A stretch of DNA of 13,127 bases from an uncultured Eubacteriales bacterium (GCA_964470745.1 CAYYEC010000047.1:1-13127), one strand, 5' to 3'; shown: positions 3,105 through 12,286, numbered from the stretch's first letter. The notes: generated from the letters alone by a model not told the origin. Made by a program: numbers and translations.

Positions 3105-4106
3105 ATGAAAAAAATCTACATTATTTTTGCTATAGCTATAATTTTAATAACGGTATTTGTTTTCATGGATTTTAAATTTGAAGAAGAAAATACAGATTTT
3201 TCAACATCATGTAATGATTCAGCTAAAAAAATTATTATGGGCTTTTCTCAAATTGGCTCTGAAAGTGAATGGCGAACAGCAAGCTCGAGATCGATTACTG
3301 AAGCAGCACAGGATGCTGATATAGAATTAAAATTTATGGATGCCCAGCAAAGACAGGAAAATCAGATTAAGGCCATTAGAGGGTTTATTGCACAGAGGGT
3401 TGATATAATTGCATTTACACCAATAATTCAGACTGGATGGGATTCTGTTTTAAGAGAAGCAAGAGATGCTGACATTCCTGTTATATTAGTTGATAGAACA
3501 ATTGATACTGAAGATTCTTCTTTATATGATGCATACATAGGGTCAGATTTTCTTGGAGAGGGAAAAAAGGCAGGCAAGTGGTTGGAAGATAGATTAAGTG
3601 GAATTGACAAGGAGATTAATATTTTTGAGATTGAAGGTACTATAGGTTCTGCTCCGGCTATAGAAAGAAAAGAAGGATTTTACAGTATTATAAAGGATCA
3701 TAAGAACATGAAAATAATTAAGTCAATAGCTGCAGATTTTATGCGTTCAAAAGGAAAAGAAGTGATGGAGGATTATCTAGAATCTCAAGGTTTAGGAATT
3801 GATGTTATCTATTCCCATAATGATGATATGGCATTAGGAGCAATTGAGGCATTAGAAGAAGCTGGTTTGAGGCCGGGAAAAGATATAGTGATAATATCAG
3901 TAGATGCAGTAAGAGGAGCTTTTGAGGCAATGATTGAAGGAAAATTAAATTGTTCAGTAGAATGTAATCCATTATTGGGTCCACAATTAATGAAATTAGC
4001 AAAAAATATTGTTATGGGTAAGGATGTTCCCAAAAAAACTATTGTGAATGAAGCTATATTTACTCAAGAAAATGCTAAGAGTGAGCTACCAAATAGAAAA
4101 TATTAA
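3105..4106 (+). CDS. Membrane-anchored periplasmic-binding-protein-fold sugar sensor (YtfQ-like type I sugar-binding protein), the first component of a three-component system
   Basis: SD AGGAGG is at 3094-3099. The N-terminus MKKIYIIFAIAIILITVFVFMDFKFEEE is a single TM anchor with no lipobox and an acidic stretch after the helix. The body carries GFSQIGSESEWR, QENQIKAIRGFIAQRVDIIAF, IPVILVDR, GTIGSAPAIERKEGF, HNDDMALGAIEAL and PGKDIVIISVD. These match the E. coli YtfQ pattern (GFSQVGSESGWR...QENQIKAVRSFVAQGVDAI...ELQGTVGASVAIDRKKGF...YAHNDDMVIGAIQAIKEAGLKPGKDI) and the binding protein at 7563-8588. Confidence 0.8.
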   Translation: MKKIYIIFAIAIILITVFVFMDFKFEEENTDFSTSCNDSAKKIIMGFSQIGSESEWRTASSRSITEAAQDADIELKFMDAQQRQENQIKAIRGFIAQRVDIIAFTPIIQTGWDSVLREARDADIPVILVDRTIDTEDSSLYDAYIGSDFLGEGKKAGKWLEDRLSGIDKEINIFEIEGTIGSAPAIERKEGFYSIIKDHKNMKIIKSIAADFMRSKGKEVMEDYLESQGLGIDVIYSHNDDMALGAIEALEEAGLRPGKDIVIISVDAVRGAFEAMIEGKLNCSVECNPLLGPQLMKLAKNIVMGKDVPKKTIVNEAIFTQENAKSELPNRKY

Positions 4107-4128
4107 TTGAAAATAAATGGAGGAAAAA

Positions 4129-5613
4129 ATGGTGAATAGTTTTTTTCCTGAATTAATTCATAAATATAGTATAAATAAAAATAAAATCAGTTCAAATATT
4201 AAGCTTTCAATTAGAAGTAAAATCCTTATATCTTTTGTTATTATAATATTAGTAATGATTAGTCTAAATTTGATGCTTTTACTTAGCTCATTAAAATATA
4301 ATAAACAATATAAAACTATAGTGAATAATATAACAACTATAAACAGGATAAATGGCATTTTAAAAACTAGAATTGATTTGGAAATGTGGAATATAGTTGC
4401 AGGGAAAACTGAGTTTAAAGATGGAAATCAATATGAAATAATAAATGACGCAAAACAAAGTATCAGAGAAATTATGGATAATGTAAGACTAGAAGAAAAT
4501 AGAATAAGATTAGATGTTACATTAAGGACTATAGATACACTTACAAACTATGTTGATATAATGGGAAAGCAGATTGAAAATAAAAGTAAAGTTGCAGAAA
4601 ATGAAAAAATTCTAGATGAAATAAGATCTGTTTCTTCTTTAATCGAAGATAATATCCAGGAATTCATATTGAATGAAATAACTTCAAGTGAAAAAGTAAG
4701 TGAAGACTTAGAGAGAAATACAAGCAGATGGCTTCTAACAAATCTTATTGTTATAGGAGTTACATTGCTTTTTTCAATGCTAATGGCTTGGATTATCTCA
4801 GGAAGTATTACCAAGCCTATAAGGGAACTACATAAAACTACTGCTTTGATAGCAAAGGGTAATTTTGATGTAAGGGTTGAACAGAATAGTGTTGATGAAA
4901 TTGCAGGTTTGAGTAGAAGCTTTAATACAATGATTGTTAAAATAAAAGAGCTTATTGAGAGGAATAAAAAGGAACAGGAAAATTTAAAGAAATCAGAGCT
5001 TAAAGTAATGCAGGCTCAAATAAATCCCCATTTTCTATATAATACTCTAGATACAATTGTATGGATGGCAGAAGCAAATAATATGAAGCAGGTCATAGAA
5101 ATAGTAAGAGCATTATCCAATTTTTTTAGGATTACATTGAGTCGTGGGAAAGATTGGATAAGTGTTCAGGATGAAGTAGAGCATGCGAAGAGCTATTTGA
5201 TAATACAAAAAATCAGGTATAGGGATATTTTAAATTTCAGCTTCGATATAGGTGAAGAAATGTTTAGCCATGCAATTTTAAAGTTGACATTACAGCCAAT
5301 AATAGAAAACGCTTTATATCATGGTATAAAAAACAAGAGATCAGGTGGGATACTACAGGTTAAGGGATATAAAGATGAAGACAGGTTGATATTTGAAGTC
5401 ATGGATGATGGTATGGGTATGACAAAAGAACGGCTTAGCGAAATCCAAACAGAACTTAATGTGGATTCTATTGAGCCAGTTCAAAAAGAAAGTGGATTTG
5501 GCCTAAATAATGTACATAGCAGAATAAAACTTTACTACGGTAAACAATATGGAATATCTATAGAAAGTAAGTATAAAGAAGGAACAAAAGTAACAATTTG
5601 TATACCTGCGTGA
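4129..5613 (+). CDS. Sensor histidine kinase, YesM/LytS (COG2972) type: TM1, ~150-aa extracytoplasmic domain, TM2, HAMP, His_kinase (PF06580), HATPase_c
   Basis: The ORF opens at ATG 4117, but GGAGG (4119-4123) favours ATG 4129 or GTG 4132. The domains visible in sequence are:
- TM1: ILISFVIIILVMISLNLMLLLSSL.
- TM2: WLLTNLIVIGVTLLFSMLMAWIISG.
- HAMP: SITKPIRELHKTTALIAKGNFDVRVEQNSVDEIAGLSRSFNTMIVKIKELI.
- His_kinase H-box: QAQINPHFLYNTLDTIVWMA.
- ATPase N-box IIENALYHGIKN and G-box GFGLNNVHSRIKLYYG.
Only 10 nt separate it from the sensor gene. Confidence 0.85.
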   Translation: MVNSFFPELIHKYSINKNKISSNIKLSIRSKILISFVIIILVMISLNLMLLLSSLKYNKQYKTIVNNITTINRINGILKTRIDLEMWNIVAGKTEFKDGNQYEIINDAKQSIREIMDNVRLEENRIRLDVTLRTIDTLTNYVDIMGKQIENKSKVAENEKILDEIRSVSSLIEDNIQEFILNEITSSEKVSEDLERNTSRWLLTNLIVIGVTLLFSMLMAWIISGSITKPIRELHKTTALIAKGNFDVRVEQNSVDEIAGLSRSFNTMIVKIKELIERNKKEQENLKKSELKVMQAQINPHFLYNTLDTIVWMAEANNMKQVIEIVRALSNFFRITLSRGKDWISVQDEVEHAKSYLIIQKIRYRDILNFSFDIGEEMFSHAILKLTLQPIIENALYHGIKNKRSGGILQVKGYKDEDRLIFEVMDDGMGMTKERLSEIQTELNVDSIEPVQKESGFGLNNVHSRIKLYYGKQYGISIESKYKEGTKVTICIPA

Positions 5614-5656
5614 GAATCTTTAATTTGTGCTATAGATAAGATAAAGGGTGAATGAG

Positions 5657-7249
5657 ATGTACAAAATTTTTATAGTTGAAGATGAGATAGTAGTAAGGGA
5701 AGGCATAAGAGATAATATTGACTGGGAAAGCACTGATTTTATTATGGCGGGGGAAGCTCCTGATGGTGAAATGGCTTTACCTTTAATCCAGGAAATTAAG
5801 CCGGATATTCTCATAACTGATATAAAGATGCCTTTTATGGATGGTTTAGAATTGTGTCGTATTGTTAGAAAGAGCATGCCGTGGATAAAAATAGTGATAA
5901 TAAGTGGACATGATGAATTTAATTATGCTAAGGAAGCTATAAGTATAGGGGTTACAGAATATATGTTAAAGCCTGTAAGCTCCGTAGAATTGCTTAAACA
6001 GCTAAATAAAGTAGCTATAAAAATTGAAAATGAAAAAGAAGAAAAAGCAAATATAGAAAAAATAAAAAATCAGTTAAATAGTAACCGGGAATCAATAAAA
6101 GAAAAATTTCTAAATGAAGTATCCCTGGGTATAATTACCACTAAAGAAGCTCTGGAAAAGGCATCTTACTTTAATATAGATTTAGTTTCAAGATATTATC
6201 TTGTTGAAATAATTGAAATAGAAAAAAGTGAAAATATCAAATATTTTAATCAAGAAGAGTTATTAGAAATTGATATTATTATTTCTAATTATATTGAAAA
6301 AAATCCTGAAATAATCAGGTTTAAAAGAAACTTAGAAGAGTTTGTATTAATTATAAAGGGAGAATCTGAAAAAGATCTTGAGGAGATTTCTTATAGGACT
6401 GCCCAGTCTATAAAATATGAAGTTGAAAGAACTACAGAATGCATTCTTTCCATAGGGATTGGAAGTGTTCAAGAAAGAGTTCATGGAATAGCATATTCAT
6501 TTAAAGATGCGTCTACTGCTAACAGACAGAAAATATTGCTGGGAAAAGGGAAAATAATTGATATAAATGATATAAAGATAGATAAGGAAGAAAGTAGACT
6601 GCTTGATATAAGTAAAATAAGTATTACTGATTTTCTAAAAGTAGGCTCTAAGCAAAGTATCAATGGTTTTTTAGATGAATATATAAAATGCCTAAATACT
6701 ACTGGCCTAAAATCAATAATGTATATACATTATGCTTTTTTAAACATTGTATTAAATACTGTTAAATTTATTGAAAACCTGGAAGGTGATAATAAAAAAG
6801 TAATAGAAGAAATATCAAATTCAGAAAACACTTTATTGGGAATCGTTTCTATAAATCAATTCAAAGAGCAGGCTTTTAATATTTTATCGAAGGCTTTTGA
6901 CTATCGAGACAACATTGTGGAAAGTAAATATTTAAATGTAATTGCAATGGCAAAAAAATATATAAATGAAAACTATTCAGATTCTTCAATGTCATTAAAT
7001 TCTGTTGCAGCCTTTGTAAATATCAGTCCAAGTCATTTTAGTACCATATTCAGCCAGGAAACTGGAGAAACATTTATTGAATATTTGACGAAGACAAGAA
7101 TAAATAAAGCTATGGAATTATTAAAGACAACATCTCAAAAAACTTTTGAAATATCTTATGCTGTTGGATATAATGATCCTCATTATTTTAGTCATCTTTT
7201 TAAAAAAGTGACTGGAAGAACTCCAAGAGAGTTTAGGATAAATGAATAA
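5657..7249 (+). CDS. Response regulator, YesN (COG4753) type: CheY receiver plus AraC/XylS helix-turn-helix
   Basis: The ORF opens at GTG 5648. ATG 5657 sits 6-7 nt after AGGGTGA and gives the classic N-terminus MYKIFIVEDE. The receiver Asp is in PDILITDIKMPFMDG. The C-terminal AraC HTH reads MSLNSVAAFVNISPSHFSTIFSQETGETFIEYLTKTRINKAMELL...ISYAVGYNDPHYFSHLFKKVTGRTPREFR. Confidence 0.85.
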   Translation: MYKIFIVEDEIVVREGIRDNIDWESTDFIMAGEAPDGEMALPLIQEIKPDILITDIKMPFMDGLELCRIVRKSMPWIKIVIISGHDEFNYAKEAISIGVTEYMLKPVSSVELLKQLNKVAIKIENEKEEKANIEKIKNQLNSNRESIKEKFLNEVSLGIITTKEALEKASYFNIDLVSRYYLVEIIEIEKSENIKYFNQEELLEIDIIISNYIEKNPEIIRFKRNLEEFVLIIKGESEKDLEEISYRTAQSIKYEVERTTECILSIGIGSVQERVHGIAYSFKDASTANRQKILLGKGKIIDINDIKIDKEESRLLDISKISITDFLKVGSKQSINGFLDEYIKCLNTTGLKSIMYIHYAFLNIVLNTVKFIENLEGDNKKVIEEISNSENTLLGIVSINQFKEQAFNILSKAFDYRDNIVESKYLNVIAMAKKYINENYSDSSMSLNSVAAFVNISPSHFSTIFSQETGETFIEYLTKTRINKAMELLKTTSQKTFEISYAVGYNDPHYFSHLFKKVTGRTPREFRINE

Positions 7250-7562
7250 CTTATAAATTTTAATTTATTGATTATTATATATGAATGTTATTTTTCTTTG
7301 CTCAACATACAAAAAATCAAAAGAAAAAACAGCTAAATCAAAAAAAAATTAACTTAATTTTAAAAAAAACTAGAAGATTTAAAATCAAAAAAAATTTTTA
7401 AACTATTTTAAAATCTATATTCATTGTTTGAAAACTATATAAATTTTATAATTTATTTATCAGATGTAGAGATTGGGCAAGTAGGTTTACTGGATATTAT
7501 TAGCCTCGCTTACTTTTATCTATAAATGATTAATAAAAAATTTTTATTAGGAGGAAAAAATA
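7250..7562 (+). promoter_or_regulatory. 313-bp extremely AT-rich regulatory region upstream of the ABC transporter operon, with repeated TTAAAATC / AAATCA(8-9) motifs that are candidate response-regulator binding sites
   Basis: AAATCAAAAAAAA occurs at 7335-7347 and 7382-7394. TTTAAAATC occurs at 7378-7386 and 7407-7415. There are many A-tracts. A weak promoter candidate is TTGTTT (7424-7429), 17-bp spacer, TATAAT (7447-7452). The SD AGGAGG (7547-7552) lies 10 nt before ATG 7563. Confidence 0.4.
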
Positions 7563-8588
7563 ATGGGAATGAAAAAAATTATCAAAGCAGTTTCATTGAT
7601 GATGGTGTCAGCAATGATGGTGTCAATGGTAGCTTGCACTGGGGCAAGTAAAACAGCTCCAGCGACTTCTTCGGAAACAAAGGCTGAAACTAAAGCAGAC
7701 AAAAAAATAGTATTAGGATTTTCACAAATTGGGGCAGAAAGTGAATGGAGAACAGCTAATACTGAATCAATTAAGCAAGCAGCTGCTGATGCAGGTATAG
7801 AATTAAAATTTGCTGATGCACAAAATAAACAGGAAAACCAGATTAAAGCAATTAGATCATTTATTGCACAAAAAGTTGATGTTATAGCATTTTCACCGGT
7901 TGTTGAAACTGGCTTTGAAACAGTTCTAAAAGAAGCTAAAGCGGCTGGAATACCAGTTATACTTACAGATAGAGCAGTTGATGTAGATGATGATTCTTTA
8001 TATGTAACATTTATGGGATCTGACTTCGAAATAGAAGGAGAAAGAGCTGCTAACTGGCTAATAGAATATATGGATAAAAAAGGTAAAACAGGTGATATAA
8101 ACATAGTTGAACTTCAAGGTACTGTAGGTTCAGCTCCAGCAATTGACCGTAAAGACGGATTTGAAAAGATCCTTAAAGATCATCCAAATTATAAGATAAT
8201 CAAATCACAAACTGGTGACTTTACTCGTGCATTAGGTAAAGAAGTTATGGAAGCTTTCTTAAAATCAGATGGAGATAAAATTGACGTATTATTTGCACAC
8301 AATGATGATATGGCAATTGGCGCAATACAAGCAATCGAAGAATATGGTAAAAAACCAGGTGAAGATATTACAATCGTATCAATCGATGGTGTTAAAGGTG
8401 CGTTTGAAGCTATGATAGCTGGTAAATTAAATTGTACAGTAGAATGTAGTCCTCTTCTTGGACCACAATTGATGCAATCGGTTAAAGATTTAATGGCAGG
8501 TAATGAACTACCTAAGAGAATAGTAACTGAAGAAGGCGTATTTCCGGCAGAAGTTGCTGCTGAAGAATTCCCAAATAGAAAATATTAA
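7563..8588 (+). CDS. ABC transporter sugar-binding lipoprotein, YtfQ-like (galactofuranose/furanose-type); paralogue of the sensor at 3105-4106
   Basis: Signal peptide MGMKKIIKAVSLMMVSAMMVSMVAC with a lipobox (MVA|C), followed by a Ser/Thr/Lys-rich linker. The mature protein aligns colinearly with the sensor: GFSQIGAESEWRTA, QENQIKAIRSFIAQKVDVIAF, IPVILTDR, GTVGSAPAIDRKDGF, HNDDMAIGAIQAIEE and PGEDITIVSIDGVKGAFEAMIAGKLNCTVECSPLLGPQLM. Both end with PNRKY. Confidence 0.85.
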   Translation: MGMKKIIKAVSLMMVSAMMVSMVACTGASKTAPATSSETKAETKADKKIVLGFSQIGAESEWRTANTESIKQAAADAGIELKFADAQNKQENQIKAIRSFIAQKVDVIAFSPVVETGFETVLKEAKAAGIPVILTDRAVDVDDDSLYVTFMGSDFEIEGERAANWLIEYMDKKGKTGDINIVELQGTVGSAPAIDRKDGFEKILKDHPNYKIIKSQTGDFTRALGKEVMEAFLKSDGDKIDVLFAHNDDMAIGAIQAIEEYGKKPGEDITIVSIDGVKGAFEAMIAGKLNCTVECSPLLGPQLMQSVKDLMAGNELPKRIVTEEGVFPAEVAAEEFPNRKY

Positions 8589-8615
8589 GATTTAGTTAAA
8601 ACAAGAATTTGTGAT

Positions 8616-8695
8616 AAAACCACTCCTATCCTATTGTACCTTGGGAAAAACAAGGATGATTAATTCATTTCTTGTAAGGAGTGGTTTTGTTTTTA
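8616..8695 (+). terminator. Intra-operon stem-loop plus U-tract between the binding-protein and ATPase genes; candidate attenuating terminator
   Basis: AAAACCACTCCT (8616-8627) pairs with AGGAGTGGTTTT (8677-8688) in a 12-bp stem. The loop contains an inner hairpin, CCTTG (8639-8643) with CAAGG (8651-8655). GTTTTT follows at 8689-8694. Confidence 0.45.
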
Positions 8696-8743
8696 AAAAT
8701 TATTATTTAAAATGGTGAGAAAATTAAGGAGGTGCATTTTAGA

Positions 8744-10255
8744 ATGTCAAGCAATCCAATTTTAAATATGGTAGGGATATACAAAGAGTTTCCAGGCGTA
8801 AAAGCACTTTCTAATGTGGATTTTAAATTAGGAACAGGTGAGATCCATGCACTTATGGGGGAAAATGGAGCAGGAAAGTCAACATTAATTAAATCACTTA
8901 CAGGTGTTTATAAAATAGAAAAAGGCGAAATTTTTCTAAATGGAAAAAAGGTTGAGATAGATTCGCCACATGAAGCTCAAATGTTAGGTATAAGTACAGT
9001 TTACCAGGAGGTAAACTTATGTCCGAATTTAACTGTAGCTGAAAACATTTTTATTGGTAGAGAGCCAATTAAGAGTTTTAAAATTGATTGGGATGAAATT
9101 AATAAAAGAGCAAAAACTATCCTTTCAAGACTGGATATTAATATAGATGTTACAATGACACTTGACAGCTATTCTATTGCTATACAGCAAATGGTTGCAA
9201 TTGCCAGGGCTCTTGAGATATCTGCAAAGGTGTTGATCTTGGATGAGCCTACTTCAAGCCTTGATACCAATGAGGTAAACAAGCTTTTTGAAGTTATGAG
9301 GAAATTAAGAGAAGATGGGTTGGGTATTATTTTTGTAACGCATTTTCTTGATCAGGTATACGAAGTGTGTGACAGAATAACTGTTCTGAGAAATGGTCAA
9401 CTGGTAGGAGAATATGAAATTGAATTTCTGCCAAGAATTGAATTAATATCTAAAATGATAGGAAAAGAATTTGATTCTTTTGAATCTATGAAGAAATCTG
9501 TAAGTACTATGGAAAAAGAGAATTCTGAAAACAGTTTTATAAGATTAAAAGGGCTGGGACAGAAGTCAACTATCAGTTCAGTAGATTTAAATATTAATAA
9601 AGGTGAAGTAATAGGTTTAGCAGGGTTATTAGGTTCTGGAAGAAGTGAAATTGCAAGGTTGATATTTGGAGTTGATAAGGCTGATTCCGGTGAAATCTAC
9701 ATAGAAGGTAAAAAGGTAACTATTACATCACCGGGAGAAGCTATGACTCATCAAATGGCTTTTTGTCCTGAAGATAGAAAAGTAGAAGGTATTATAGGAG
9801 ACTTAACCATAAGAGAAAATATTATTTTGGCTATACAATCCCAAAAAGGATGGTTTAGATATATTGGTAGAAAGGAACAGGAAGAGATAGCAAACAAGTA
9901 TATTAAGCTTCTAAATATAGTTACACCAAGTTGTGAACAGAAAATAGAGAACTTAAGCGGAGGTAATCAACAAAAGGTTATTCTTGCCAGATGGTTGGTG
10001 ACTGAACCAGAATTATTAATACTTGATGAACCAACCAGAGGTATAGATGTTGGTGCAAAGGCCGAAATTCAGAAGTTGGTACTTGAATTAGCTGAGGAAG
10101 GCATGTCTATAATGTTTATTTCCTCTGAGCTGGAAGAAACAGTAAGATGTTGCAACAGAGTAGTTGTGTTATGTGATAGAAAAATTGTTGGAGAACTTTC
10201 TTCAGAAGAAATAAGTGAAAATAAAATTATGCAAATTATCGCAAAGGAGGCATAG
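8744..10255 (+). CDS. Sugar ABC transporter ATP-binding protein with two tandem ABC domains (YtfR/RbsA/MglA-like)
   Basis: The ORF opens at GTG 8732, which lies inside the SD AAGGAGG (8726-8732). ATG 8744 (MSSNPILNMVGIYKEF) is the likely start. N-domain: Walker A GENGAGKST, signature LSGGNQQ-like motif, Walker B VLILDEPTSSLD. C-domain: GLLGSGRSE, LSGGNQQKVILARWL, LLILDEPTRGIDVGAK. Length is ~500 aa. Confidence 0.85.
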   Translation: MSSNPILNMVGIYKEFPGVKALSNVDFKLGTGEIHALMGENGAGKSTLIKSLTGVYKIEKGEIFLNGKKVEIDSPHEAQMLGISTVYQEVNLCPNLTVAENIFIGREPIKSFKIDWDEINKRAKTILSRLDINIDVTMTLDSYSIAIQQMVAIARALEISAKVLILDEPTSSLDTNEVNKLFEVMRKLREDGLGIIFVTHFLDQVYEVCDRITVLRNGQLVGEYEIEFLPRIELISKMIGKEFDSFESMKKSVSTMEKENSENSFIRLKGLGQKSTISSVDLNINKGEVIGLAGLLGSGRSEIARLIFGVDKADSGEIYIEGKKVTITSPGEAMTHQMAFCPEDRKVEGIIGDLTIRENIILAIQSQKGWFRYIGRKEQEEIANKYIKLLNIVTPSCEQKIENLSGGNQQKVILARWLVTEPELLILDEPTRGIDVGAKAEIQKLVLELAEEGMSIMFISSELEETVRCCNRVVVLCDRKIVGELSSEEISENKIMQIIAKEA

Positions 10256-10257
10256 GG

Positions 10258-11337
10258 ATGAAAAACTTATTAAATATGCTGAAGCGCTTTTCAAAATGGA
10301 GATTATTTGGTCCATTTATTACATTGGCTTTGGTTCTTATGTTTAATGTGATATTTACACCTGGGTTCTTTCATTTGGAGATCAAAGATGGGCATTTGTT
10401 TGGAAGTCTAATAGATATACTAAACCGTGGTTCGAGTACCATGATTATGGCTGTAGGATTAACATTTGTAGTGGCTACGGGAGGTATTGATATTTCAATA
10501 GGATCCATGATAGCTATAACAGGTGCTGTAGCAGCGACATTAATTGGTGGAGAACTGGTAATTGTTGATGGCGTTCAAGAGTATGTATCATTACTACCTA
10601 TGCCTATTGCTATATTAGCAGCTCTGGCTGTTGCTATTGCTCTTGGAATGTGGAATGGAACTCTTGTTGCCAGGATAGGAATTCAGCCTGTAGTCGCTAC
10701 ATTAATATTACTTACTGCCGGTAGAGGTATCGCACAATTATTAACTAAAGGACAAATAATTACTATATATTATAAACCATATCATTTTATTGGTACAGAA
10801 TACTTACTCGGATTACCATTCTCAATTTATATAGTAGTATTTATATTAATTCTCTCATTATTGACTGTTAAGAAGACAGCTCTTGGATTGTTTATTGAGT
10901 CAGCAGGATGTAATCCTGTTGCCAGCAAATTTGCAGGAATAAAAGTTAAGAAGATAATTTTTTGGTCATATGTTTTTTGTAGTTTTTGTGCAGGTATAGC
11001 TGGATTAATTATTAGCTCAAATGTTAAGAGTGCAGATGGGAACAATGCAGGTCTGTTTAAAGAAATGGATGTTATTCTAGCAGTAGCACTTGGAGGTAAT
11101 TCTCTAAATGGAGGAAGATTCTCTTTAGTGGGAAGTGTTATTGGAGCATTGATTGTTCAATCCATTGATACAACAATATATTCAGTAGGTATTCCTCCAC
11201 AAATAAGTAAAATTATTAAAGCTGTTGCTGTAATTATAATATGTTTGGCACAGTCTCAACCGTTTAATGATAAAATGTCAAAAGTTTTTAAAAAAAGAGG
11301 GGGTCTAAAATATGAAGAAAATGCAGTTAAATTATAA
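10258..11337 (+). CDS. Sugar ABC transporter permease, RbsC/YtfT-like (BPD_transp_2)
   Basis: ATG 10258 is 9 nt after AGGAGG and 2 nt after the ATPase stop. Multiple TM segments. The family motif TGGIDISIGSMIA is present. Confidence 0.85.
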   Translation: MKNLLNMLKRFSKWRLFGPFITLALVLMFNVIFTPGFFHLEIKDGHLFGSLIDILNRGSSTMIMAVGLTFVVATGGIDISIGSMIAITGAVAATLIGGELVIVDGVQEYVSLLPMPIAILAALAVAIALGMWNGTLVARIGIQPVVATLILLTAGRGIAQLLTKGQIITIYYKPYHFIGTEYLLGLPFSIYIVVFILILSLLTVKKTALGLFIESAGCNPVASKFAGIKVKKIIFWSYVFCSFCAGIAGLIISSNVKSADGNNAGLFKEMDVILAVALGGNSLNGGRFSLVGSVIGALIVQSIDTTIYSVGIPPQISKIIKAVAVIIICLAQSQPFNDKMSKVFKKRGGLKYEENAVKL

Positions 11338-12286
11338 GTATTTACCTCTGACGATAACAATTTTATTATTTGTTGTATTGTTTATGGCAGGTTCCTTAAA
11401 ATATACAGGTTTTTTCTCATTACAAGTTATAATGAATTTATTTATTGATAATGCTTTCCTTATAATAGCAGCTATAGGTATGACATTTGTTCTTTTAACA
11501 GGAGGAATCGATATTTCGGTTGGATCTGTAATTGCTTTAAGCTGTATGATAGCAGCCGATTTACTTGAAAATAAGCATATGAACCCGTATCTTGTTATGT
11601 TGATTGTATTACTTGTAGGTACAACAATTGGGTTTATTATGGGATATCTTATTCACTACTTTAAATTGCAGCCATTTATTGTTACTCTGGCTGGACTGTT
11701 CTTTGCACGTGGATTATGCTATATAATCAGTATAGGAAGTATAAGCATAAATGACCCTATATTTAAGAATATATCCCAGTTTAGAATACCATTGCCGGGA
11801 AACGCATTTGTATCAATTAGTGTTATTATTACGATAGCTATGATTATACTTGCAGTTTATTTAGCTCATTATACAAAATTCGGAAGAACAGTCTATGCAA
11901 TAGGTGGTAACGAGCAGTCAGCACTTCTTATGGGATTACCTGTTGCAAAAGTTAAAGTTTTGGTATATACCCTGAATGGTTTTTGTGCAGCATTATCAGG
12001 TCTCGTATTTTCCTTTTACATGCTTTCAGGCTATGGACTAACAGGTGTAGGTATGGAAATGGACGTAATTGCATCAGCAGTTATAGGTGGTACATTATTG
12101 ACAGGTGGAGTAGGATTTGTTATAGGTTCTGTATTTGGAGCATTAATACAAGGTATTATCCAAACAATAATTACCTTTCAGGGAACATTAAGCCCTTGGT
12201 GGACAAGGATAATTGTAGCATTGCTAATATGTGTATTTCTTTTATTGCAGAGAATGCTGCAATCTTTTAAGGTAAAAAAAGCATAG
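11312..12286 (+). CDS. Second sugar ABC transporter permease, YjfF-like (BPD_transp_2)
   Basis: ATG 11312 is 7 nt after AGAGGGGG, which is encoded by the KKRGG codons of the upstream gene. It overlaps the previous gene by 26 nt. The motif TGGIDISVGSVIA is present, with 8-9 predicted TM segments. Confidence 0.85.
   Translation: MKKMQLNYKYLPLTITILLFVVLFMAGSLKYTGFFSLQVIMNLFIDNAFLIIAAIGMTFVLLTGGIDISVGSVIALSCMIAADLLENKHMNPYLVMLIVLLVGTTIGFIMGYLIHYFKLQPFIVTLAGLFFARGLCYIISIGSISINDPIFKNISQFRIPLPGNAFVSISVIITIAMIILAVYLAHYTKFGRTVYAIGGNEQSALLMGLPVAKVKVLVYTLNGFCAALSGLVFSFYMLSGYGLTGVGMEMDVIASAVIGGTLLTGGVGFVIGSVFGALIQGIIQTIITFQGTLSPWWTRIIVALLICVFLLLQRMLQSFKVKKA

Follow-up and report, generated by a model that had tools for sequence, protein, structure and literature searches.

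Predicted activator-dependent promoter of a ytfQRT-yjfF-like sugar transporter operon adjoining a three-component sensor in an uncultured Eubacteriales bacterium

Genes at the locus and related sensory systems

The stretch of DNA analysed here, the window, is a complete contig of 13,127 bp with a GC content of 31%, from a Clostridia-like organism. It contains the genes for a sensory system, followed by an ABC transporter operon that is the predicted target of this system:

3105-4106, + strand: sensor solute-binding protein (SBP), YtfQ-like and membrane-anchored, opening the sensor operon (Pfam Peripla_BP_4, 1e-46)
4117-5613, + strand: membrane histidine kinase with a transmembrane segment, an extracellular domain of ~150 aa, a second transmembrane segment, HAMP, His_kinase (PF06580) and HATPase_c (domain search)
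5648-7249, + strand: YesN/AraC-type response regulator with a REC domain, a GGDEF_2-like linker and a dual helix-turn-helix (HTH) AraC domain (Pfam)
7563-12286, + strand: target operon encoding a YtfQ-like lipoprotein SBP (7563-8588), a fused ABC ATPase (8732-10255) and two permeases (10258-11337 and 11312-12286) (Pfam)

The sensor SBP matches YtfQ-type chains in the PDB (E=8e-98) and carries a hydrophobic anchor at its N-terminus, as is expected of the extracytoplasmic component of a three-component sensor. The catalytic part of the kinase matches PDB entry 6swj. When the kinase was compared at the sequence level with all PDB chains (phmmer, E<=0.001), only catalytic-domain matches were found (6swj, 3d36, and 4cti), and its sensor domain did not match any solved chain, including those with the N-terminal domain of LytS. 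In the regulator, residues 439-530 match HTH_18 (8e-21) and HTH_AraC (6.5e-20) and constitute the dual-HTH AraC domain. The transporter SBP matches 6hb0/6hbd (E=8e-105) and YtfQ (2vk2; E=2e-83). With two ABC_tran domains in the fused ATPase and two BPD_transp_2 genes (Pfam), the operon has a YtfQRT-YjfF-type gene set. The two SBPs are paralogues with 60% sequence identity; in tblastn comparisons, the SBPs in the sensor position of relatives were closer to the transporter SBP of the window than to its sensor SBP. The SBP, the PF06580-type membrane kinase and the YesN regulator are encoded by adjacent genes, and the same triad is found in relatives. Judged from these genes, the layout is that of an SBP-dependent three-component sugar sensor adjoining a transporter under its predicted control.

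In Escherichia coli, the ytfQRT-yjfF operon encodes an ABC transporter for galactofuranose and arabinofuranose. The transporter of the window shares with it the SBP matching YtfQ, the fused ATPase and the two permeases. On the basis of the similarity to YtfQ and the function of this protein in E. coli, the ligand of the transporter is likely a furanose sugar. To our knowledge, ytfQRT-yjfF of E. coli is not regulated by an adjacent three-component sensor.

Systems in which an SBP, a kinase and a YesN/AraC-type regulator induce an adjoining ABC transporter have been described in Ruminiclostridium cellulolyticum, i.e., CuaDSR (PMC10384115) and XuaDSR (PMC12175519). CuaDSR and XuaDSR differ from the window in their sugars and in the class of the transporter (CUT1), and a conserved binding site was not reported for them. 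In Clostridium beijerinckii, XylFII-LytS-YesN controls xylFGH (Sun et al., 2015, cited in PMC7098912), and the YesN protein is described in the citing article as directly activating this adjoining CUT2 ABC operon. As described there, this system resembles the window in that a CUT2 ABC operon adjoins the genes for a YesN regulator, a kinase of the PF06580 type and a binding protein that is independent of transport, whereas the binding proteins of the window are YtfQ-like rather than XylF-like and its transporter has two permeases.

For comparison, ~60 orthologous loci were collected. The nearest relatives of the regulator are 55-59% identical, with none above 59% identity, and consequently the DNA of these loci does not align, whilst synteny holds. 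Loci L081-L084, L086, L087, L091, and L093 have the sensor genes of the window and, after a gap of 200-560 bp, its four-gene ABC operon as well. A scan of genomes with the regulator alignment yielded, among the matches listed, at least about 50 loci of more distant relatives in Chloroflexota, Treponema, Lachnospiraceae, and Paenibacillus/Cohnella, which served as an independent, GC-rich test set. In L085, the regulator gene is followed by genes for an SBP and a methyl-accepting chemotaxis protein instead of the ABC operon, and in L088 by a small ORF and secA, also without an ABC operon. Thus, the sensor/transporter module can be rewired.

The AT-rich gap and its predicted promoter

The gap between the regulator gene and the transporter operon (7250-7562) is 313 bp long and contains 17.6% GC (82% A+T). 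No other intergenic region of the window is as long or as AT-rich; the other sizeable gaps measure 224, 238, and 143 bp with 33.5, 26.5, and 27.3% GC, respectively. In an earlier note on this DNA, the gap had been described as longer and more AT-rich than the other intergenic regions, in agreement with these data (143-238 bp and 26-34% GC for the latter). Small ORFs in the gap would encode just low-complexity peptides of 22-41 aa.

The earlier note had drawn attention to two pairs of repeated words in this gap, AAATCAAAAAAAA at 7335 and 7382 and TTTAAAATC at 7378 and 7407, as the best candidates for the binding sites of the regulator, and to a promoter candidate, TTGTTT-17-TATAAT. All of these are located exactly where they were placed, and a third copy of AAATCAAAA is found at 7314, 21 bp before the copy at 7335. 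The significance of the repeats was assessed in 3000 composition-matched shuffles of the gap, both mononucleotide and dinucleotide. For a non-overlapping repeat of at least 13 nt containing C or G, P was 0.015 in the mononucleotide and 0.026 in the dinucleotide shuffles, compared with 0.037 and 0.073, respectively, for any repeat of at least this length; the 13-nt repeat AAATCAAAAAAAA is marginal against chance. Repeats of at least 9 nt were obtained in ~60% of the shuffles and, therefore, the TTTAAAATC pair is no more than expected by chance. The words are present, yet they carry little statistical weight as repeats. Runs of at least eight A residues occur only three times in the whole 13-kb window, at 7340-7348, 7362-7369, and 7387-7394, i.e., spaced 22-25 bp.

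The features that were assigned in the gap, all on the + strand, are as follows:

7310-7336: degenerate A-rich/AAATC segment with the third AAATCAAAA copy at 7314 (weak; <1 bit with the 15-column matrix discussed below)
7337-7366: distal box unit ATCAAAAAAAAATTAACTTAATTTTAAAAA, core AACT at 7351-7354 (best match of the window to the family box)
7360-7380: A8 followed by CTAGAAGATT, possible degenerate box, AACT at 7368-7371 (anecdotal; <1 bit)
7378-7392: TTTAAAATCAAAAAAA, AAAATC element followed by an A-tract, 5' of the proximal box (AAAWTC in relatives)
7393-7414: proximal box AATTTTTAAACTATTTTAAAAT, core AACT at 7401-7404, counterpart of TCTACTTTTC.CAAAA in relatives (conserved register)
7422-7429: -35 element cATTGTTT with the weak hexamer TTGTTT at 7424-7429 (consensus cATTGTtA in the same register in relatives)
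7447-7452: -10 hexamer TATAAT, 17 nt 3' of the -35 (in all nine aligned promoters)
7459-7548: predicted 5' leader of ~100 nt, its start placed at 7459-7461 from the position of the -10 only
7549-7554: ribosome-binding site AGGAGG, 8 nt 5' of the ATG at 7563 (from the sequence)

The hexamer TTGTTT has 3/6 matches to the -35 consensus. When the promoters of six close relatives were anchored on TATAAT, they stacked on the window without gaps. The stacked promoters have in common the -10 hexamer, the 17-nt spacer, a -35 region cATTGTtA and a proximal box TCtACtTTTc.CaAAA. Among the columns that do not vary in the six relatives are T7420, A7423, T7424, and G7426 in the -35 region and A7402, C7403, T7407, and A7413 upstream of it. 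In a held-out test, both strands of the window were scanned position by position for the invariant columns alone. All 14 columns matched at the predicted promoter, and this was the case at 1 of 26,138 positions; with the -10 omitted, a match in 8/8 columns was found at 1 of 26,184 positions. The relatives added later, L091 and L093, matched in 14/14 and 12/14 of the invariant promoter columns, respectively. Thus, the proposed promoter (7424-7452) is positionally conserved in eight orthologous loci and well supported. The earlier assignment of the gap as the control region of the transporter operon is supported as well. Profile log-odds derived from the six sequences were noisy, with the whole promoter ranking 2-12 and the proximal box alone ranking 426, and were replaced by the counts of conserved columns.

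The proximal box of the window, TTAAACTATTTTAAAAT, has A7402-C7403-T7404 in the columns of TCtACtTTTc.CaAAA in the relatives. It scores 5.6-6.3 bits with the 15-column matrix (6.3 bits for 7393-7407), and its conservation when considered alone (columns -52 to -30) is not significant (7/12 columns, P=0.055). The AAAWTC element is located at columns -64 to -59 in the relatives vs. -66 to -61 for AAAATC in the window, a shift of 2 nt. With the proximal box and the -35 columns conserved in register, the region has a promoter-proximal site next to a weak -35 that is combined with a good -10. In the distal region (-125 to -52), no significant ungapped conservation was found, because the register of the boxes relative to the -10 varies among the loci.

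A box shared with related loci

When EM motif discovery was run on the relatives without the window, AAAAAATCAACTTTT-type words came first, ahead of an element in the leader and the ribosome-binding site. The first EM matrix, with 18 columns, was blurred over A-run and T-run registers and scored coding sites of the window above the gap. It was replaced by a register-locked 15-column matrix and a 30-column matrix, the latter built from 34 distant non-training loci only. According to the 15-column matrix, each close relative has 2-4 boxes of 10-22 bits, typically arranged as a distal pair 20-21 bp apart and one box by the -35. In Bacillota, Chloroflexota, and Spirochaetota alike, the linked ABC operon is preceded by the box unit of ~21 bp, tc..AAAAAAtc.aACTTTT, mostly in a tandem arrangement with 21-bp spacing. 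The extended consensus reads tc..AAAAAAtc.aACTTTTttc.aaAA, in which TC recurs roughly once per helical turn. In L093, four tandem units of ~95 bp (aaaaattagctattcttttttgcgggacgctcg...) at 7597-7990 fill the enlarged gap of 558 bp upstream of the boxes.

The box was tested in 51 non-training loci from among the matches listed, with GC contents up to 61%. Within 300 bp 5' of the ABC operon, these loci have 49 box matches of at least 10 bits vs. 2.2 expected. The upstream match was the best of the whole locus of ~17 kb on either strand in 20/51 cases and belonged to the top three in 32/51. As many of these loci have 50-61% GC, such an AT-rich word cannot be background there. Neighbouring boxes were spaced by 21 bp in nine cases and by 20 bp in two, and +21 was the sole enriched offset from the best box (21% vs. 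0.6%). Hence, tandem direct repeats ~21 bp apart are seen at the level of the family.

Tandem direct repeats of ~21 bp, centre to centre, are also the sites of the dual-HTH proteins AraC at araBAD I1-I2 and XylS at Pm, where the promoter-proximal site abuts a weak -35. The family boxes share this phasing. Control is different, as AraC and XylS are ligand-binding proteins, whereas the regulator of the window would be controlled by phosphorylation. Also in contrast to AraC and XylS, the strongest pair in the close relatives lies ~75-100 bp upstream of the -35 and is accompanied by a further proximal site, and a single strong distal unit is recognisable in the window.

This distal unit at 7337-7366 scores 15.0 bits with the 30-column matrix and ranks first of all window positions on both strands, the next one scoring 11.0 bits. 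Judged by the 15 flank columns that had not been used in site picking, it belongs to the best 0.05% of positions in the window and the best 0.7% in the gap. The probability of a maximum of at least 15 bits in shuffled gaps is 0.0027 (mononucleotide) or 0.009 (dinucleotide). A caveat is that the box motif is A/T-rich and the genome has 31% GC. A 15-mer identical to that of the window, AAAAAATTAACTTAA, constitutes a box in L079, where it has a partner 21 bp upstream. With the 15-column matrix, 7343-7357 scores 10.7 bits and the proximal box 6.3 bits, which is weak compared with the 12-22 bits in close relatives; this makes two matches of at least 6 bits vs. 0.48 expected. No partner box is recognisable 21 bp to either side of the distal unit (<1 bit, 15-column matrix). 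The segment at 7310-7336 corresponds in position to the upstream partner box of the relatives, 20-21 bp from their main distal box, and the sequence at 7360-7380 resembles, by eye, AAAAACTTAGAAAG at a similar position in L082. The distance between the distal and the proximal box is 50 bp in the window vs. 53-54 bp in 4/6 close relatives.

The 238-bp gap upstream of the sensor operon contains a near-consensus promoter-like sequence, TTGCCA-18-TATAAT at 2897-2926, unlike the transporter promoter with its weak -35. The family box was not found in this gap, with scores of at most -2.5 (+ strand) and 0.7 (- strand). Just within the start of the sensor SBP gene, a box-like word, AAAAAATCTACATTA, is present at 3109-3123 (11.4 bits); it codes for MKKIYI and is probably a coincidence of Lys codons.

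The conservation of the repeated words in orthologous loci, suggested in the earlier note as a check, can now be evaluated. The exact words are mostly low-complexity flanks of the conserved boxes. Of the two copies of AAATCAAAAAAAA, the one at 7335-7347 makes up the 5' flank (tc..AAAAAA) of the distal unit, and the one at 7382-7394 corresponds, with a shift of 2 nt, to the AAAWTC and A-rich element 5' of the proximal box in the relatives. Likewise, TTTAAAATC at 7407-7415 overlaps the conserved columns T7407 and A7413 between the core of the proximal box and the -35, and at 7378-7386 it overlaps the AAAWTC element, conserved 2 nt away in the relatives. Neither word contains the AACT(TTT) core (7351-7354 and 7401-7404), and they are not the conserved elements. 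Thus, the proposal that an AraC-type regulator acts at direct repeats upstream of the weak -35 was right about the kind of site, as 21-bp-phased family boxes that include A-tracts are found, and wrong in detail, i.e., with respect to the exact words.

Alternatively, the exact words, AAATCA8-9 at 7314/7335/7382 and TTTAAAATC at 7378/7407, could be lineage-specific sites of a diverged regulator. The distance of 21 bp between the first two AAATCAAAA copies, the marginal non-randomness of the 13-mer (P 0.015-0.07), the occurrence of tc plus an A-tract within the extended family consensus and the lack of a strong 21-bp partner box in the window would all be in agreement with this option. However, the DNA-binding domain of the regulator is on average 67% identical to those of its relatives, most close relatives have the same recognition Helix-1 (SPSHFSTIFSQETG), and recognition Helix-2 (GYNDPHYFSHLFKK) is one residue away from their GYNDPHYFSYLFKK. 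Such near-identity of the recognition helices makes a shared DNA specificity plausible, and these relatives, whose regulators are all at most 59% identical, use a box with AACTTTT. In addition, the 9-mer pair is expected by chance, and without the AACT core and the 3' flank, 7337-7366 would not be the top match of the held-out matrix. We therefore consider sites made up of the exact words unlikely.

Another option is that the A-tracts provide only intrinsic curvature or an UP element, in a promoter that is constitutive or fed by read-through and does not require sequence-specific binding of an activator. In the window, the only three A-runs of at least eight bases all lie within 7340-7394 at intervals of 22-25 bp, in a region with 82% A+T, and there is no terminator between the regulator operon and the gap: none was found by a scan 3' of the regulator gene, where the local fold has z=-0.9. 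Hence, read-through may add to the expression of the operon, as was also proposed at a basal level for xydSR-xyl-doc (PMC3572039). However, the GC-rich relatives retain the non-A-tract core TC.AACTTTT, often as the best match in ~17 kb, and the fixed 21-bp phasing of complete units together with a poor but conserved -35 points to a protein site. Since an A-tract belongs to each box in the relatives, the suggestion in the earlier note of a role in curvature is inseparable from protein binding. As a sole explanation, A-tracts have a low probability.

The regulator of the window belongs to the same clade as that of XydS/XydR of R. cellulolyticum (Ccel_1227/1228), the activator of the xyl-doc hemicellulase cluster; P0037, the R. 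papyrosolvens counterpart of XydR, is 52% identical to it over its full length. XydR is a YesN/AraC response regulator that was shown experimentally to be an activator and to bind its own target promoters in EMSA, and the DNA of these promoters contains shared A-rich repeats upstream of the -35 (PMC3572039). At the locus of the R. papyrosolvens counterpart, the adjoining YtfQ-like two-permease ABC operon has a 20-bit box with a partner 21 bp upstream. Unlike in the window, the ABC operon in the XydSR system lies upstream of the kinase gene, a separate sensor binding protein is lacking and cellulosomal genes are driven as well. The boxes in the xyl-doc promoter of R. papyrosolvens reach ~9 bits only and are supportive at best for a link with the EMSA results on XydR.

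As the link between the box and the regulator rests on co-occurrence, the boxes might also be bound by another protein, either a global or a second local regulator, with the YesN regulator acting elsewhere or indirectly. The related XuaDSR system, for which there is no conserved site (PMC12175519), and the moderate boxes in the xyl-doc promoter controlled by XydR could be explained in this way. The box, however, tracks the regulator/ABC module over three phyla, which is not what a host-specific global factor would do, and direct repeats of 21 bp suit the dual-HTH domain of an AraC-type protein. Binding by another protein is quite improbable.

Whether the tandem 21-bp unit tc..AAAAAAtc.aACTTTT is the recognition site of the whole YtfQ-linked YesN/XydR clade, from Bacillota to Chloroflexota and Spirochaetota, is in our estimate an even bet. 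For XydR, shared A-rich features were listed and a binding consensus was not defined (PMC3572039), a conserved binding site was not identified for XuaDSR (PMC12175519), and a clear repeat was not reported for pneumococcal YesN. The family-wide box is a modest by-product of this analysis that may be new to the literature.

The leader and the predicted mechanism of control

In the close relatives (L081-L084, L086, L087, L091, and L093), the leader contains an element, CTTCCCGGGAGA, at approximately +25 to +45 after TATAAT. Its palindromic centre is TCCCGGGA, TCCGCGGA or TCTCCGGAGA, and the outer stems covary. The CUUCC half resembles an anti-Shine-Dalgarno sequence and pairs with the real ribosome-binding site in some of the predicted folds. 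No Rfam family was found for this element, which could be an RNA switch, a stabiliser or a DNA operator. Neither the leader of the window nor the distant loci contain this element. A riboswitch or another cis-regulatory RNA in the leader (7459-7562) as the main control point is very unlikely: the leader is long (~100 nt) and the close relatives have their conserved palindromic element there, but Rfam gave no match in 7250-7562 even at E<=5 and none at gathering score in five orthologous loci, and the leader of the window, including its 5' hairpin, folds no better than shuffles (z=-1.3) and is devoid of the element of the relatives.

Other potential control elements were inspected as well. No convincing CcpA cre site (TGWAANCGNTNWCA) was found near the promoter, where the only match, at 7429-7442, has two mismatches and is devoid of the central CG. 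Over the whole window, 22 cre-like matches were counted vs. 12.8 +/- 4.1 expected. The 143-bp spacer between the SBP and the ATPase genes contains, at 8613-8695, a strong stem-loop with a 15-bp stem (AAAACCACUCCUA...UAAGGAGUGGUUUU) followed by GUUUUU (z=-3.6), which was missed by the simple terminator scan. It is probably a partial terminator or a stabilising hairpin that results in an excess of the binding protein. At the beginning of the window, two near-perfect hairpins with stems of 15 and 30 bp are adjacent to each other (163-196 and 197-274; -65 kcal/mol, z=-12.8). They explain the microRNA-like Rfam matches on both strands and may be a bidirectional terminator or a repeat element.

Taken together, 7250-7562 is probably an activator-dependent promoter of the sigma-A type plus the leader of a ytfQRT-yjfF-like sugar ABC operon, controlled by the upstream three-component sensor. 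The data computed here on which this reading is built are the gene content, the conservation of the promoter and of the register of the proximal box, the enrichment and 21-bp phasing of the boxes, and the top rank of the distal unit with a held-out matrix. We infer the role of the regulator as binder and activator, the start site and the ligand. In the proposed mechanism, the sensor binding protein, when loaded with sugar, would activate the kinase, which would phosphorylate the YesN/AraC regulator. The dual-HTH domain of the latter would then occupy the units composed of an A-tract and TC..AACTTTT, i.e., the distal one at 7337-7366 and the proximal one at 7393-7414. In this position, the regulator may aid RNA polymerase at a promoter with a perfect -10 (7447-7452) and a poor, conserved -35 (7422-7429), in a class-I/II-like activation by the phosphorylated protein on 21-bp-phased units. 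Transcription would start at ~7460 and produce a leader of ~100 nt before AGGAGG.

Read as an activator-dependent promoter, the control region is ordinary but well supported, and a sugar sensor that induces its own transporter is ordinary biology. What was an AT-rich gap is now annotated as a promoter with specific bases, namely two AACT cores (7351-7354 and 7401-7404), a -35 (7424-7429) and a -10 (7447-7452). Bacillota that degrade plant biomass very commonly have YesN/AraC response regulators, and we know of hardly any among these proteins with a defined operator. If the 21-bp unit is indeed the recognition site of the clade, the box would be usable for genome-wide regulon prediction, including the targets of XydR-like regulators in hemicellulase clusters. 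Thus, a box that tracks the regulator/ABC module over three phyla offers a handle on the prediction of furanose and hemicellulose regulons.
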